Assembly (NCBI GenBank): GCA_965247115.1
Contig: CBDFGR010000002.1
Location: 1,568,001 to 1,632,000, forward strand
Direction: 5' to 3'
Source of the DNA: Myxococcota bacterium
GTDB taxonomy: Bacteria; Myxococcota_A; UBA9160; SZUA-336
DNA: 64,000 bases
Under the pieces are notes generated by a model that worked only from the letters and a program-made list of their open reading frames with translations, did not search any database and was not told the DNA's origin. Position numbers and translations under genes: made by a program. Below are positions 2,228 to 60,910 of the stretch, one piece after another; positions within the stretch are counted from its first letter, which is position 1, and each line of letters starts with the position of its first letter.

Positions 2228-4294
2228 CTAGTCGCCCGCGATCTCCTCGATCAGGCGGCGCTTTGGGATTGGTTTGCTCAGGTAGATGTCGCAGCCGGCG
2301 GCTATACATTTCTCTGCGTCACCCTGCATTGCGTTTGCCGTGAGTGCGATGATCCGTCCCCTGTAGCCCGCGTCGCGCAGCTTTCGCGTCGCTGCGTAGC
2401 CGTCGAGGATGGGCATCTGGATGTCCATCAGGATCACGTCGAAGGGACTGCCAGCGGACTTCGCCTCGATGGCGCGCTCGTACGCGAGCAGTCCGTTACC
2501 GACGATCTCTACCTTGGCCCCCGCCAGGCTCAACATCCGGTTGATCAGCCGCTGATTGTCCTCTCCGTCCTCCGCCAGCAGGACGCGGAGCCCGTCCAGG
2601 CTCGGCTCGTCACCGAGCTCGCTCAAATCCGGTGCTACCTCTGCGAGCTTCGAGAGCGCCTCTAGCGGACTCGTAAACAGCTCGGAACCCTCGAGAGAGC
2701 CTGTCTCGATCGTGGCCACGAAGCGGCTCCCGGGCGTGTCCTTCTCCTCAATCGTAACGCTTCCGCCCAGCAGTTCGGCAAGGCTACGCGAGATGGAGAG
2801 GCCGAGGCCCGTGCCGCCGAAGAGACGTGTCGTCGACATGTCCGCCTGCGAAAAGGGCTTGAAGAGACGCTCGTGATCCTCGGGATCGATGCCGATGCCC
2901 GTGTCCTCGACCACGAAGCGCAGCATCGGCTGCTCCACCTCCGGAGGGCTGACAAGGCTCACGATCAGGCGGACGCTGCCGCGGTCCGTGAACTTGATCG
3001 CGTTGCCCAGCAGGTTGAGAAGGATCTGCTGCACCCGGGTCGGATCCGTCTCTATCTCCTCCGGGACAGGTGTGTCGTAGCCAATCTCGAAGACGAGGTC
3101 CTTCTCTGCCATGCGCGGCTCGATCACCTCTCTTACGCGTTGCAGCAGGTCCGCAGTTGCGCAGGGTATGCGCTCAACGCTGAGGTTCCCTGTCTCGATC
3201 TTCGAGACGTCGAGGATCTCGTCGATCAGCCCCAGCAGATGCTCGCCGTTGCGCCGCACCGTGCGCGAGAACTCGACGCGCTCTGCTTTGGAGCGCGCTT
3301 CGGGGAACAGCTCGGCGTAGCCCAGGATCGACATCATGGGAGTGCGCAGCTCGTGGCTCATGTTCGCTAGGAAATTGGTCTTCGCCTCGGCAGCTGTCTC
3401 GGCCGCGCGCAGAGCCTCAGCCAGCTCGCTGTGACGTCGCAGCAACAGCTCGTTGCTTCTGCGCCGGTGCATGGCCTGGCCCAGGGTAAGCCCGATGTTG
3501 TGCATGAGCGAGACCGAACGGATCTCGCGTGGTCGGGGCTCGACGTCAAACAGCTCGACCACCGCCATCACGTCGTTCGCCACCGAGGCCGGGAACGCGA
3601 CTGCCCCGCGAACCTCTTCTGAGCTGGGCCTGCCGAACCAGTCCTGACCTTGCACGTCTTCTACCCAGAGCGCTTCTCCGCGCTCCAGCACCCTGCCAGG
3701 GAGCTCGGCACCCCGCTCGAATTCAAGCGAGCGGCTCGCCTCGACAAAGTTGCCGGCCAGATCGGGAGCCGAGACGTGCCAGATGTCTCCGGGGCGAAGG
3801 CGACCCGGGTCTTCCAGGTCGACCACATAGACGTGACCAATTGGCCAGCATAGGAACCTGCAGATGAGCTGACAGCACGCCGCGAGAGCGGCCTCGAAGT
3901 CTCCCTGTCGATCGACGATCCGGCTGATCTGGCCCAGTAGCCGAAGCTCGGCCTCCGAACGCTGAAGATCGCGGTGCGCATGCTGGTGGATCTCGAGCAT
4001 GGCGTCTACGGCGCGCGCGAACTCCGCAAACTCGCGGACCTCGGTCCGGACCTCGGCACACGAGCTCGGCTCGAGAGGCGTCCCTCTCCCGATCATCTGC
4101 GAGAGATCTGCGAGCGGATCGAGGGCCAGGCGCAGGAGCGCGCGGTGAACTGCGAGCGCCGCCGCCCCCACGACAGCAAACGCGAGCAGGCCGGATAGCG
4201 CGGCGCGCGGCCACGGCGAGAGTCGTTGTCCCACGGCCGCCTCGAGGCACACTGCGACGAGTGCGGCGAGCACGCCGACAACCGCCAGCCTCAT
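2228..4294 (-). CDS. Hybrid sensor histidine kinase/response regulator (TM, GAF, HisKA, HATPase, receiver)
   Basis: H-box FLANMSHELRTP, N-box QILLNLLGNAIKFT, DTGIGI, GGTGLGL; receiver LLAED...DVILMDIQMP...KP. Start uncertain. Confidence 0.93.
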   Translation of the reverse strand: MRLAVVGVLAALVAVCLEAAVGQRLSPWPRAALSGLLAFAVVGAAALAVHRALLRLALDPLADLSQMIGRGTPLEPSSCAEVRTEVREFAEFARAVDAMLEIHQHAHRDLQRSEAELRLLGQISRIVDRQGDFEAALAACCQLICRFLCWPIGHVYVVDLEDPGRLRPGDIWHVSAPDLAGNFVEASRSLEFERGAELPGRVLERGEALWVEDVQGQDWFGRPSSEEVRGAVAFPASVANDVMAVVELFDVEPRPREIRSVSLMHNIGLTLGQAMHRRRSNELLLRRHSELAEALRAAETAAEAKTNFLANMSHELRTPMMSILGYAELFPEARSKAERVEFSRTVRRNGEHLLGLIDEILDVSKIETGNLSVERIPCATADLLQRVREVIEPRMAEKDLVFEIGYDTPVPEEIETDPTRVQQILLNLLGNAIKFTDRGSVRLIVSLVSPPEVEQPMLRFVVEDTGIGIDPEDHERLFKPFSQADMSTTRLFGGTGLGLSISRSLAELLGGSVTIEEKDTPGSRFVATIETGSLEGSELFTSPLEALSKLAEVAPDLSELGDEPSLDGLRVLLAEDGEDNQRLINRMLSLAGAKVEIVGNGLLAYERAIEAKSAGSPFDVILMDIQMPILDGYAATRKLRDAGYRGRIIALTANAMQGDAEKCIAAGCDIYLSKPIPKRRLIEEIAGD

Positions 4295-4402
4295 GAGCAC
4301 CGCTCTACACAGCGTAAGTCCGCCTGGGCTCAACCGGAAACACCCACACACGACCTATCGTCGGCGGGCGGGGATCCCTGAGAGAGAGGACTGGACCCCG
4401 GC

Positions 4403-55425: not shown

Positions 55426-55429
55426 AGCC

Positions 55430-55542
55430 GTCGGCGGGCGGGACACTTCCCCCGCGTGACCTCGCTACTCAGCTCCGCCAGCGTCTCCTATGCCTCGGAC
55501 ACCGCTACACGGTCTCGCGGGGGAAGTGTCCCGCCCGCCGAC
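55430..55542 (+). repeat. Family C hairpin element, copy 3
   Basis: 32-bp IR with 1 mismatch (55430-55461 / 55511-55542) around the 49-nt loop. Confidence 0.9.
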
Positions 55543-55600
55543 TCCTTGCTCCGCGTTGCGTTGGTGGAGCTGCGTCCCTGTGTGGGTTGTGGGTGTGGAG

Positions 55601-57783: not shown

Positions 57784-57836
57784 GCTCCGATATTTCGCTT
57801 TTCCTCGGAACTAGGTACTTAGCGCACAGGCCAGTT

Positions 57837-58478
57837 CTACCAGCGTGCGGGTTTTGTGAGCGCGCGGCCTCCTGGTAGCACCAGTGGATCGGGGAACTGG
57901 TGCTGGAGATAGCGAGGGGACTTAAGCTTGAACGTGTGTCCCGGGATCAGCTTTTGGAGTTCTTGGTTCTGTCTTGCGAAGGGGAATGCGAAGAAGATCG
58001 ATTTCTCAGGATAGAGAGCTTGGGCAGTCCGCACGGCAGGGGCTAGATCCGTGTCGCCAGTCACCAGCACTGCGATATCACATTGGTCTGCATCGAAGAT
58101 CTCAAGAAGCCTGCAGGCGATTGCTACATCGGTTTCCTTTTCTTCGTATGCAGGTCTCTTCTGCTTGCAGACGTTGCACCACACTTCCTTGAACTTGAAC
58201 CGCCCAAGCTCGACACGCACACCCGTGGATTTGAGCGCTTCAATATATAGTTGGTGTCGCGCGGTCGAACCCGGTCGATAGTGGTCTCTGTGGTCAGCGA
58301 GCGCTGAGAAGTAGTAGATCCTCTCAAGGGTCGCAGTTCGTCCGATCACGGGGAGACACGACTCGAGCAACGATCTGAGATTCAGCCACCGCGTGGATGG
58401 ATGCTGAGGCAACCTCCGCTCGATCTCCTTGGCGGAGTGATAGACGTTGAAGCCGTCAACGAGGAAGACGGTCCGCAC
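57837..58478 (-). CDS. NYN (LabA/DUF88, PIN-fold) domain ribonuclease
   Basis: Motifs FLVDGFNVYH, YYFSA, EEKETDV.IA, LVTGDTDL.PA; acidic catalytic residues intact; internal CxxC. Confidence 0.92.
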   Translation of the reverse strand: MRTVFLVDGFNVYHSAKEIERRLPQHPSTRWLNLRSLLESCLPVIGRTATLERIYYFSALADHRDHYRPGSTARHQLYIEALKSTGVRVELGRFKFKEVWCNVCKQKRPAYEEKETDVAIACRLLEIFDADQCDIAVLVTGDTDLAPAVRTAQALYPEKSIFFAFPFARQNQELQKLIPGHTFKLKSPRYLQHQFPDPLVLPGGRALTKPARW

Positions 58479-58494
58479 GCTAGCCCCTTAAATC

Positions 58495-58553
58495 GAGAAA
58501 CCCCCCAGGCCTTAGCCTGAGGGGGACCAGCGCGCCCGTAGGCCCGGCTGGGG
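58495..58553 (-). ncRNA. Candidate structured leader RNA (two hairpins) upstream of the NYN gene
   Basis: CCAGC..GCC-UACG-GGC..GCUGG, then CCCCUCAGGC-UAAG-GCCUGGGGGG-UUUCUC. Confidence 0.5.
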
Positions 58554-58609
58554 ATGATGTATATTACTTATCGTCCCAACGCTGCGGAAGTCAAGTGGGG
58601 ATTTCACCG

Positions 58610-58647
58610 AACTCTGCTAAACGGGTGATCACCCGTTTAGCAGAGTT
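58610..58647. repeat. Perfect spacer-less 38-bp palindrome
   Basis: AACTCTGCTAAACGGGTGA|TCACCCGTTTAGCAGAGTT. Confidence 0.95.
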
Positions 58648-58720
58648 TCCCTTATTGTTCAAGGACGGTCTACTCTTCCAATGTATTCAGTACGTTATGG
58701 TCGCAAGCTTCCGCTTATCG

Positions 58721-59725
58721 CTACTCCAAAGGGGATGATCCCGGCAGAGATCTGACTGGCTCTCGGTATCGGAGCCGCTTCCCCTCTCCCCGCTGGATCG
58801 CGCGCACGGTCCGCGCCCCATCGTCCAGCCCTCGCGTGTTGTAGCGGTATTCGAACTCGCTCACGTAGCGGTGCAAGTGCTTCTTGCTCACGCTGTGGAA
58901 GGTCCCGTACATGCCCCGCTTGATGAGCGAGAAGAAGCCCTCAATGGTGTTCGTGTGAACGTCTCCCCGGACGTACTCGCGGGCTCCGTGCTTCACCGTC
59001 TTGTGCCCGCCCATGAACTCCATTCCCACGTAGTCGTAGGACCGCTCCTCATCCGTCATGACTCGGGCGCTGCGATCCACGAATCGCCGCAGATTCCCCA
59101 TGAGGTTGTCCTTGGTGACGCGATCAATGACCTGGGTGCGAACCTCGCCCCCGCGCTCAACCACGGCAAACACGGGCGTCTTGAGCGTGGCGCGCCCGGT
59201 AATGCGCTTGCCTGGGAGGTTGCTGCGGCCCTTGTAGCGCGGCTTGCCACCGACGTAGGTCTCATCGGCTTCGACCGTGCCCGTCAGCTTCCCTCGGGGC
59301 GTCTTGGGCATGGGAGCCATTGCCCAGCGGATGCGGTGCATGAGGAACAGAGCGCTCTTGTAGCTCAGGCCAGTCTCGCGCTGGATCTGGAGCGCGCTGA
59401 CACCTTTCTTAGAGCTGCACGCGCGCCAGAAAGCGTGACACCAGATCCGAAGCGGGATCCGGGAGTCTTCGAAGATGGTCCCTATCCGTACAGTGAATTG
59501 GCGCTTACAGCCCTGGCAGCGCCACAGGAACCGCTTGTTCCGGCCCCCCTCGCGATCCTGCATCTGGTAGACGCTGGTATCACCGCAGCGGGGGCAAGCC
59601 GGGCTCTCGCCCCACCGCTGTCGCTCGACGAACTCCACGGCCGCGAGTTCGTGCCGGCATGCTTCAGGAATCTGAGCGAGCAGCCCGGAACGGGCACCTC
59701 CGACCTTGCCTTGACCCTTTGCCAT
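58721..59725 (-). CDS. IS1595-family transposase
   Basis: Zinc ribbon CPRC...CQGC, HTH (KKGVSALQI.RE.G.SYKSA), VEADETYVGG, MTDE, HTNTIEGFF, Y..EF.YRYN. Confidence 0.95.
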   Translation of the reverse strand: MAKGQGKVGGARSGLLAQIPEACRHELAAVEFVERQRWGESPACPRCGDTSVYQMQDREGGRNKRFLWRCQGCKRQFTVRIGTIFEDSRIPLRIWCHAFWRACSSKKGVSALQIQRETGLSYKSALFLMHRIRWAMAPMPKTPRGKLTGTVEADETYVGGKPRYKGRSNLPGKRITGRATLKTPVFAVVERGGEVRTQVIDRVTKDNLMGNLRRFVDRSARVMTDEERSYDYVGMEFMGGHKTVKHGAREYVRGDVHTNTIEGFFSLIKRGMYGTFHSVSKKHLHRYVSEFEYRYNTRGLDDGARTVRAIQRGEGKRLRYREPVRSLPGSSPLE

Positions 59726-59731
59726 GTGAGT

Positions 59732-59760
59732 ATTGTAGTAAGTTCAATTGGTTGCGTCAA
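59732..59760 (-). promoter_or_regulatory. Sigma70 promoter, probably giving a leaderless transposase mRNA
   Basis: Minus strand TTGACG-N17-TACAAT, 6 nt before the ATG, with no RBS. Confidence 0.75.
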
Positions 59761-59872
59761 GTAATAAGATATTCAGGGTGAGGCCACGACTTAAGAGCAT
59801 TAAGCCCGTAACACGCGAAAAACTGGCGTATTGACGCCAGGGAACCGATAATACGGCCGAGTCTTAACCGGG

Positions 59873-59959
59873 TCCCCCGGGAGGGGCTCGAACCCTCAAG
59901 ACGCGGATAGCGTCGCCCGGTTCCAGACCGGGTGCGTTTGCCAATTCCGCCACCGGGGG
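59873..59959 (-). tRNA. Atypical class II tRNA(-like) gene: Leu-type body, anticodon TGG (Pro)
   Basis: 7-bp acceptor CCCCCGG/CCGGGGG with A73; D-arm GCG-GAATTGGCAAA-CGC; anticodon arm CCCGG-TCTGGAA-CCGGG; V-arm GACGC-TATCC-GCGTC; T-arm GAGGG-TTCGAGC-CCCTC. CCA is not fully encoded (ACCC). Confidence 0.85.
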
Positions 59960-60063
59960 GTGTCCTAGGCGGATCCGGGGAACGGAGAGGTGGGTGGCCA
60001 ACCTGAGCCTCTTCGCCCCCGGACCCTTGGGATCAGGGACGACTAGACGCCCCTAGCGGTATT

Positions 60064-60534
60064 TCATAGGCGAGTTTCCTCCTCGTGTTGCTCCACTATC
60101 TGAGACTGGATGAGTGGTCCTCCCTCCAGCGTCGTGATCGCTTCGTTGATGCGTGATCTGGGGAACCACCACCTACCGTCGCTTCGCTTCTGCGAGTCGT
60201 AGACCTGCCGAACAGGGATTCCGATCTGGTGGAGGCGCTTTTGGACTAAGGCCATCGCCGACCCGGTGCCCTTGGCGCTCTTCATGTGGAATCGCTCGGC
60301 CATTTCAGAAGCTGAAGTACCTCTCAGCCCAGCTTCGGAGATGAACCTCAACGTTTCCACAGCCTTGTGCATGGAGTCCCCAGACCTCGGAGCTGATCCA
60401 TTTCCTCTGGGCTTCGGAGTATCGGAGGTCGTCCTACTCTGGGTGGACTCCCCATACTTGCGAATCAGACGATCGAGGTCCGCCTCCGTCTCGCAGTGGA
60501 CGGAGAGCCCTCGGATCGTCACTCTGTATCCCAT
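60064..60534 (-). CDS. Hypothetical protein, possible winged-helix DNA-binding domain
   Basis: Purine-rich RBS. C-terminal TLRFI...G.RG.SASEMAERF...GSAMA.V...L pattern is HTH-like. Confidence 0.6.
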   Translation of the reverse strand: MGYRVTIRGLSVHCETEADLDRLIRKYGESTQSRTTSDTPKPRGNGSAPRSGDSMHKAVETLRFISEAGLRGTSASEMAERFHMKSAKGTGSAMALVQKRLHQIGIPVRQVYDSQKRSDGRWWFPRSRINEAITTLEGGPLIQSQIVEQHEEETRL

Positions 60535-60655
60535 GACTCTTCCCCCCCCTGGGCATCGACGGCGCGCGTGTCGCCGACGGTCCTTAGGCTTTAGCACGAG
60601 AGTCTGATGTGGCGCAACATCTGACTAGTGATCTGATACCCCATCCGGAGGTTTT

Positions 60656-60829
60656 GTGGCGCACAGAAAGAAGAGACCAGGCCCAGACCCAGAGCGAGTG
60701 AAGATCGAAGGCGACTGGGAGGAAGCCGTGGGAGAAGCGCTGAAGAAGCCGCGACCCGAGGACGGCTGGCCCAAGCCCGAGAAGGGCCAGGACGAGAAAG
60801 AGCCCGAGGAAGACTCCTCGGACTCCTGA
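60656..60829 (+). CDS. 57-aa small protein in the IS1595 element
   Basis: Absent from the ORF track. GGAGG RBS then GTG; MAHRKKRPGPDPERVKIEGDWEEAVGEALKKPRPEDGWPKPEKG... Confidence 0.6.
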   Translation: MAHRKKRPGPDPERVKIEGDWEEAVGEALKKPRPEDGWPKPEKGQDEKEPEEDSSDS

Positions 60830-60910
60830 TTTTTCCGTGGCCTAGCGGTGCGGGGGATGATCCTAGCGCTTGTGCGCTAAGTCCATACTTCCGCTTTTCC
60901 TTCGTTTTGA

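Follow-up and report, generated by a model that had tools for sequence, protein, structure and literature searches.

We report that the class II transfer RNA (tRNA) gene at positions 59873–59959, on the minus strand of a 64,000-nucleotide stretch of a Myxococcota genome (contig CBDFGR010000002.1 of assembly GCA_965247115.1; "the window" hereafter means this whole stretch, and "the host" the bacterium that it comes from), is carried as cargo by an IS1595-family transposon and belongs to a covarying family of tRNAs in which, as sampled, leucine anticodons are absent; these points we regard as established. The gene joins a leucine-type body to the proline anticodon UGG, a mismatch that an earlier note on the window had singled out; its strand, its place in a transposon and its membership of a widespread family are context that the note did not have. 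Functionally, our reading, to which we give a little less than an even chance, is that the tRNA is leucine-shaped transposon cargo that would be charged by leucyl-tRNA synthetase (LeuRS) and would read the proline codons CCA and CCG weakly as leucine.

Structurally, the gene is the only tRNA in the window (called by ARAGORN at 59871–59959, minus strand, anticodon tgg), and the Rfam tRNA model aligns to 59873–59959 on that strand from end to end with 49.7 bits (gathering score 29; E-value of 1.2e-7 for the window). The 87 nt from position 1 to A73 hold an acceptor stem CCCCCGG/CCGGGGG that sets C1:G72 and C2:G71, followed by U8 and G9, a D arm GCG-GAAUUGGCAAA-CGC with a 3-bp stem (GCG/CGC) and a loop carrying A14, A15, G18, G19 and A21, and A26 between the D and anticodon arms. 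The anticodon arm reads CCCGG-UCUGGAA-CCGGG, its loop (59921–59927, minus strand) being U32, C33 (59926), the anticodon U34 G35 G36 (59923–59925), A37 and A38; next is a variable arm whose 5-bp stem (GACGC/GCGUC) closes a 5-nt loop, and UU precedes the T arm GAGGG-UUCGAGC-CCCUC, in which the identity positions U54, U55, C56 and A58 are all present. Each of the 24 stem pairs is intact, in agreement with the earlier note, and so is every conserved tertiary position; each feature that the note listed (the cloverleaf, long variable arm, A15, A73, UGG, C1:G72 and C33) was found again with ARAGORN, Rfam and the sequence itself. The geometry of a 7-bp acceptor and a 5-bp T stem is the same across the 27 aligned members of the family described below. 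The 3′ CCA is not encoded (CCC comes after A73), and folding of this one sequence gave a z-score of −1.67, which is not significant alone.

The body of this tRNA is that of a leucine tRNA. Within the host genome (3 contigs, 5.17 Mb, 66% G+C), its closest tRNAs are Leu-CAA and Leu-UAG, each at 70% identity, and canonical tRNA-Pro is absent from the 14 nearest, which bears out the leucine-type body that the earlier note had proposed. The tRNA identity review places leucine identity in Escherichia coli in A73, A14 and three contacts (G18:U55, G19:C56 and U54:A58), and states that leucylation can do without the anticodon arm; the window tRNA has every one of these elements and the long variable arm, with UGG in place of a leucine anticodon (NAG or YAA). 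For prolyl-tRNA synthetase (ProRS), the same review lists G72, A73, G35 and G36 as determinants in E. coli, together with G15:C48 and G37; the first four are present here, whereas A15/U48 and A37 stand where the others would be. ARAGORN calls host tRNA-Pro genes for UGG, GGG and CGG, each called at 77 nt, of which 74 run to A73 and the last three are an encoded CCA, and each carrying C1:G72, A73, U33 and G37. Their class I body is not that of the window tRNA, which measures 87 rather than 74 nt to A73 and has the 5-bp variable stem with its 5-nt loop.

The tRNA lies inside a 3,088-bp unit (57806–60893) that was inserted as a whole, because inverted repeats and an 8-bp duplication enclose it and an empty site exists. 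The left terminal inverted repeat, CGGAACTAGGTACTTAGCGCACAG (57806–57829, plus strand), also ends a partial copy of the element on another contig (C2 767512–767833) and is identical to the right repeat (60870–60893, minus strand) at 18 of 23 scored positions, and the target-site duplication CTTTTCCT flanks both (57798–57805 and 60894–60901). Among contigs assembled from four sequencing runs of one sample, one contig of run X2 links 57795 straight to 60892, skipping 3,096 bases; it has 4 differing letters in the 61 bases beyond the junction and therefore comes from a related strain in the same sample. On the minus strand, the gene order within the unit is ORF177, tRNA, transposase and a gene for an NYN-domain nuclease. 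The intact 334-amino-acid transposase (58721–59725, minus strand), whose reading frame opens on the same strand 146 nt downstream of the tRNA, has zinc-ribbon and DDE domains (PF12760, 2.4e-10, and PF12762, 7.5e-40, in Pfam; NF033547, 1.4e-54, in NCBIfam). IS1595-family elements combine a DDE transposase bearing an N-terminal zinc ribbon with terminal inverted repeats and 8-bp target duplications, and the window element has the DDE_Tnp_IS1595 and zinc-ribbon transposase, the enclosing repeats and duplication, and an empty-site polymorphism; IS1595-family insertion sequences with passenger genes share with it the type of transposase, the repeats and the 8-bp duplications. In a search of 60 relatives of the host, 2 of them congeneric with it, the tRNA was nowhere found at full length.

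Relatives of this tRNA occur on the same kind of element in several phyla. We scanned one genome per prokaryotic species for the D arm of a Leu-type tRNA with UGGA, at the proper spacing, in the anticodon loop behind it, and obtained 34 loci. A Leu-type class II tRNA with UGG is present in 24 (19 with perfect or near-perfect stems, 5 with an imperfect acceptor); of the others, 8 break off after position 34 and 2 are artefacts that masked bases produced. Judged by record titles, these loci, all in metagenome-assembled genomes, belong to Acidobacteriota, Pseudomonadota, Planctomycetota, Thermodesulfobacteriota, Chloroflexota, Actinomycetota and Bacteroidota. An IS1595 transposase adjoins the tRNA in 14 of 23 distinct loci (Pfam on neighbours) and a tblastn search with the window transposase found remnants in 3 more, for a total of 17/23 with a transposase or remnant; transposases at the pattern loci are 38–57% identical to the window's. 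Among the 26 tRNA-bearing loci with a full transposase hit, a script found inverted repeats (16–20 of 20 positions matching) and a perfect 8-bp duplication around both tRNA and transposase in 11 (L006, L012, L017, L022, L028, L160, L164, L168, L172, L176 and L183), and a further element, L013, was delimited by eye with the duplication CGAAAATC, which makes thirteen enclosed elements with the window's. That the tRNA might be the target of insertion rather than cargo was rejected for the window and the 12 other elements, in each of which repeats and target duplications enclose the tRNA, and for the window by the empty site as well. L013 and L036, which lie in one genome, have in common a 2,031-bp repeat of 99.4% identity that contains the tRNA. 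Passengers differ between elements, as does the orientation of the tRNA relative to the transposase (tandem, convergent or divergent); in 8 elements the tRNA sits 60–300 nt upstream of a conserved transposase promoter.

Several pattern loci showed peculiarities of their own. One IS1595 element (L022:1657–4468, 8-bp duplication AAATCATT) holds two odd Leu-type tRNAs, one with UGG and a defective acceptor stem and an intact one with the glycine anticodon CCC (4228–4312). On a Chloroflexota chromosome, a Leu-type tRNA with UGG and C33 (L030:2994–3076) stands between a cas3 gene and an open reading frame (ORF) followed by a cse2 gene, and no transposase was found within 3 kb of it. The eight loci that break off (L008, L014, L018, L024, L031, L009, L027 and L035) are tRNA-Leu-like 5′ halves that are not tRNA-like past position 34, five of them with a conserved insert at that point (GAGTGC ... 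GGGAAAC ... CTCAAATTCGG); a group I intron was suspected in the eight, and no Rfam intron model matched at gathering scores.

Since the pattern had fixed the anticodon, a second search was begun from the transposase, with tRNAs sought at its loci by ARAGORN, our own scan and a covariance model. In the host phylum, a transposase relative at E ≤ 1e-40 was present in 9 of 401 genomes, the host included, and the 13 loci besides the window's include L131, with a Leu-type UGG tRNA that the pattern had missed, L128, and L138, with a normal tRNA-Arg. In the class of the genome bearing L013, the transposase was found at E ≤ 1e-50 in 152 of 401 genomes (a tally that includes four unpublished genomes, whose two loci are outside the 28 published best loci), and 11 of the 28 published best loci have a Leu-type tRNA, with UGG in eight (L160, L162, L164, L167, L168, L172, L174 and L185) and UGC in three (L176, L182 and L183). 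None of the 12 Leu-type tRNAs from this search (these 11 and L131) has a leucine anticodon; the loci are best matches to the window transposase and thus a biased sample of the IS family. Across the family as sampled, anticodons are mostly UGG, otherwise UGC or CCC, and never a leucine one. In the transposase tree, the UGC-linked transposases form a clade with 100/100 support beside the window's, and tRNA-bearing and tRNA-less elements are interleaved within one 47-row clade (98/89 support). A private code, in which the transposases would write leucine as proline codons, was rejected: no proline occurs in the 21 UGG-linked transposases at the 5 conserved-leucine columns of 64 aligned transposases.

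At L128 (996–1082, minus strand), in a genome of the host's class, lies a tRNA of another kind: serine-type (GGAGAGG acceptor, G73) with the leucine anticodon CAA, in a loop that is one base off a CGA loop. It stands ~420 nt from a transposase that is 56–58% identical to the window's, and a search of its surroundings turned up no pair of inverted repeats with a target duplication.

Evolutionarily, the cloverleaf of the family is under selection, a conclusion strongly supported by covariation in an alignment of 27 members and 102 columns. Cloverleaf pairing holds in 98.8% of 644 cells versus 68.9% in shuffles, partners slid by 1–3 columns as a control pair in 39–46%, and both-sided changes affect 20 of 24 pairs, with 0 of 500 shuffles reaching the observed values; the aligned sequences were picked as tRNA-like, most of them through the D-arm pattern, which favours the D stem and not the other four helices. 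Selection on the stems, which the earlier note had proposed, is thus upheld, and homologues with conserved stems, whose absence would have counted against its case, are found with the anticodons UGG, UGC and CCC. Fifteen columns are invariant, among them G7, U8, G9, G12, A14, A15, G18, G19, A21 and A73, and U34, G35 and A37 are each conserved at 90% or more. Position 33 is U in 23 members and C in 4 (the window, L030, L033 and L167). G1 is found in 24/27 members, paired with C72 in 19 and U72 in 5, and C:G at 1:72 is confined to the window tRNA, L182 and L183 (3/27), the latter two with the alanine-type anticodon UGC. Being common to UGC relatives whose transposases are near the window's, C1:G72 looks inherited rather than tuned to ProRS, and is probably a lineage trait; of the interpretation given in the earlier note, the leucine body and the selection on stems are therefore supported, and the proline acceptor identity is not. 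Two family members (L168:2550–2651 and L174:1354–1453) have G37, lack G18G19 in the D loop and show UGCAAAU or UGCAAUU as T loop; contacts between D loop and T loop would be lost, and both tRNAs are nonetheless found in IS1595 loci.

The host genome holds one whole element, one internal fragment and one end fragment, the last being the copy on C2. The internal fragment, on contig C3 (768804–769846), corresponds to window positions 57828–58648 and 59794–60053 at 98–100% identity (BLAST against the genome) and includes a second copy of the tRNA (769663–769752), with the same anticodon arm and one extra C that makes an 8-nt T loop; its NYN gene is frameshifted by a 32-base deletion. The 1,145-bp segment that it lacks (58649–59793 of the window), which contains the promoter and the transposase, would be either an insertion in the window copy or a deletion from the C3 copy, and its ends have no clear inverted repeats or duplication. 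An inner repeat at this segment was our first reading and was dropped, the feature being the conserved transposase promoter. To the eye, the outer repeats of the window element are similar to those of two elements, L183 and L176, with transposases close to the window's in the tree; this speaks for a transposase that belongs to the element itself. A perfect 38-nt palindrome (58610–58647), imperfect in C3, lies right on the segment's edge.

How might such a tRNA act? Our favoured reading is that host LeuRS, which does not need the anticodon, would charge it through the leucine elements listed above, and that the charged tRNA would be delivered to the ribosome and decode CCA and CCG proline codons (9% and 46% of proline codons, respectively, in 808 long host ORFs) as leucine, attenuated by C33 and by an A37 where canonical tRNA-Pro has G37, perhaps with some benefit to the transposon or the host. 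The scaffolds found on the transposons all belong to synthetases that pay no heed to the anticodon (12 of Leu type and, in L128, one of Ser type with CAA), which fits selection for a charged, re-aimed decoder and would be unexpected for a mere RNA processing signal. Alanine and glycine tRNAs are marked by G3:U70 and U73, and these are lacking in the UGC and CCC members, so that leucine would be the only obvious amino acid for them as well.

Several points weigh against this reading. With C33 at a site where U33 is almost universal, and A37 where the host's three tRNA-Pro genes have G37, decoding may be poor or absent; the window copy may be prolylated, since in E. coli ProRS recognises each of G72, A73, G35 and G36; and a tRNA that placed leucine at proline codons should be toxic, with no benefit known. 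The other copies in the genome are decaying, as the 8-nt T loop and the frameshifted NYN gene on C3 attest, and no promoter-like site was found upstream of the tRNA within 59960–60150. CCA is encoded in 46 of 52 tRNA calls of the host genome and not here; this is not disqualifying, because the host Leu-UAG gene also lacks it and the genome has two PF01743 nucleotidyltransferase genes.

We weighed four other explanations against these data. A non-decoding, tRNA-shaped RNA, kept by the transposon for a job at the RNA level (it might signal the processing or stability of transcripts next to it, regulate how the transposase is expressed, or serve RNases such as NYN as decoy or substrate), would suit C33 and A37, which argue against efficient decoding, the lack of G18G19 in L168, L174 and L164, with a T loop altered in the first two as in ribosome-avoiding tRNAs, the tRNA lying ahead of the transposase promoter in those 8 elements, and the RNase-type passengers or neighbours (NYN in the window, a PIN-domain gene beside L029). 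The link to NYN is, however, local, since a class II tRNA was found upstream in 0 of 80 loci of NYN relatives and an NYN gene in 0 of 34 pattern loci, passengers vary by element, and the tRNA has no fixed position or orientation relative to the transposase; moreover, a processing signal would need neither a near-invariant U34, G35 and A37 nor scaffolds of the leucine and serine types only. We consider this explanation unlikely, if still worth keeping in view. The tRNA could instead be a decaying relic, a neutral passenger heading for loss in the window even if the family is functional elsewhere, as C33, the missing CCA and promoter-like site, and the fragmentary copies with their T-loop insertion and broken NYN might suggest; all 24 stem pairs and the conserved tertiary positions are nevertheless intact, C33 recurs in three unrelated members and so is tolerated, and the transposase and NYN genes are whole while an empty site is still present in the sample, so that the insertion is probably recent. 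Such decay seems to us improbable.

Somewhat more improbable still is a class II tRNA-Pro, that is, a window copy charged with proline by ProRS that adds to proline-decoding capacity. C1:G72, A73, G35 and G36 supply all four end determinants listed for E. coli in the identity review, and the host tRNA-Pro genes likewise have C1:G72 and A73, but two further proline determinants are replaced (A15/U48 for G15:C48, A37 for G37), C1:G72 is shared with UGC relatives and so is not tied to a proline anticodon, 24 of 27 family members have G1, the host is already equipped with UGG, GGG and CGG tRNA-Pro genes, and the intact leucine elements mean that LeuRS would compete. Finally, the earlier note had raised the prospect that the loop is a sequencing error of a leucine anticodon, and this, like an assembly error, was rejected with near certainty: the C3 copy has the same loop, no other letter appears at 59921–59927 in contigs assembled independently from the four runs (which, being of the same sample, are not independent biological support), and dozens of relatives carry UGG.

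The remaining features of the element are passengers and signals around the tRNA. A sigma-70-like promoter of the transposase gene (TTGACG, 17 nt, TACAAT; 59732–59760, minus strand) sits in a block conserved upstream of 8 related transposase genes, with a core that resembles the terminal inverted repeat. An intrinsic-terminator-like hairpin, CTGGCG-TCAATA-CGCCAG followed by TTTTT (59823–59840, minus strand), begins 33 nt past A73 of the tRNA (1 found versus 0.2 expected in shuffles). The NYN-domain nuclease (57837–58478, minus strand; 213 amino acids; PF01936, 1.9e-10) is matched along its whole length by HEC-09, a candidate-defence family of PADLOC (4.3e-43); the preprint defining HEC-09 reports no protection against any phage among those it tested. 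A tRNA–NYN module was suspected, since the two genes were duplicated together in the genome, and was rejected by the locus surveys, which found a class II tRNA upstream of NYN relatives (39–62% identity) in none of 80 metagenome loci; the subfamily is rare in the host's phylum, with 3 weak matches outside the window's genome among the 401 genomes searched, and the literature on mistranslation and NYN returned general papers only. ORF177, of 177 amino acids (60064–60597, minus strand), lies upstream of the tRNA and has no match in Pfam, NCBIfam or PADLOC, its Atlas neighbours all being annotated as "hypothetical protein". No synthetase domain was found by Pfam among 10 ORFs around the tRNA. Outside the element, a ~120-nt stretch (55427–55549) recurs at several genome sites with 76–81% identity.

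Two observations concern other tRNAs of the host. ARAGORN called no tRNA-Leu(UAA) in its genome, and TTA makes up 0.3% of leucine codons in the 808 long ORFs, so UUA may be nearly unused or unreadable in this organism. Two extra, partly degenerate tRNA-Ser(CGA) copies (C3 688608–688692 and 2401143–2401229) have the 3′ two-thirds in common with the genuine gene at C3 2329734 and look like attachment-site duplicates of integrated elements.

Three known groups of natural tRNAs invite comparison. Allo-tRNAs (Mukai et al. 2017, PMC5389517), described there mainly from soil bacteria (including Acidobacteria) and metagenomes, combine serine identity and a tRNA-Sec-like D arm with an acceptor/T geometry of 8/4 or 9/3, and carry many anticodons; they occur near toxin–antitoxin genes, one pseudogene overlaps a transposon-related ORF, and the authors suspected links to transposable elements. 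The window tRNA resembles them in its long variable arm, an anticodon mismatched to its scaffold and a link to mobile or toxin–antitoxin genes, and differs in its canonical 7/5 cloverleaf, Leu-type D arm and A73; the main text of that paper has 0 occurrences of UGG, and its passages relevant here do not describe cargo in defined IS1595 elements with repeats and duplications. The nev-tRNAs of nematodes (Hamashima et al. 2012, PMC3333845; 2015, PMC4300185) are class II Leu-type tRNAs with glycine CCC or isoleucine UAU anticodons that in vitro are mischarged with leucine. They likewise set a non-leucine, non-serine anticodon on such a scaffold (L022 also has CCC), whereas they are eukaryotic, nematode-specific chromosomal genes for which these papers, in the portions relevant here, state no transposon link and no UGG, and the window family is bacterial and spans several phyla. 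In Streptomyces and Kitasatospora, tRNAProX with ProRSx forms a mistranslating family with A33 (review PMC11415595), and like the window tRNA it is a natural bacterial dual-identity tRNA that would mistranslate without U33 (A33 versus C33). As described in that review, tRNAProX is the reverse chimera, a class I proline body with alanine, asparagine or threonine anticodons and a co-encoded dedicated synthetase, none of which is seen in the window tRNA and its element; its A33 suggests that a base other than U33 may keep toxicity low. By analogy, we predict that the window tRNA works like a nev-tRNA on a bacterial transposon, yet is a member of none of the allo-tRNA, nev-tRNA and tRNAProX families. 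Among the titles and abstracts that our literature searches listed, none deals with tRNA cargo in IS1595 elements.

Natural tRNAs that break the codon table are rare, and allo-tRNAs, nev-tRNAs, tRNAProX and the CUG-clade tRNA-Ser have each changed views of how rigid the code is; here, the mismatch is carried by a defined mobile element whose transposase is intact, and it turns up repeatedly, its fold conserved, in different phyla. More broadly, and with more doubt than attaches to the charging and decoding of the window copy, we posit that IS1595 transposons of several bacterial phyla disseminate tRNAs that accept leucine and are re-aimed at the codons of proline, alanine or glycine, mobile mistranslation cassettes that could act as a tunable toxin or as a stress or defence device, and that in the window the NYN RNase (HEC-09) could hold the tRNA in check. 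If true, this would be insertion-sequence cargo of a kind not recognised before and a source of natural, pre-tested scaffolds for missense suppression, as well as a warning to annotators that "tRNA-Pro" or "tRNA-Ala" calls of 84–100 nt may mislead. If these tRNAs are charged with leucine, horizontal transfer could bring proteome-wide ambiguity from proline, alanine or glycine to leucine to any host whose LeuRS accepts the scaffold.

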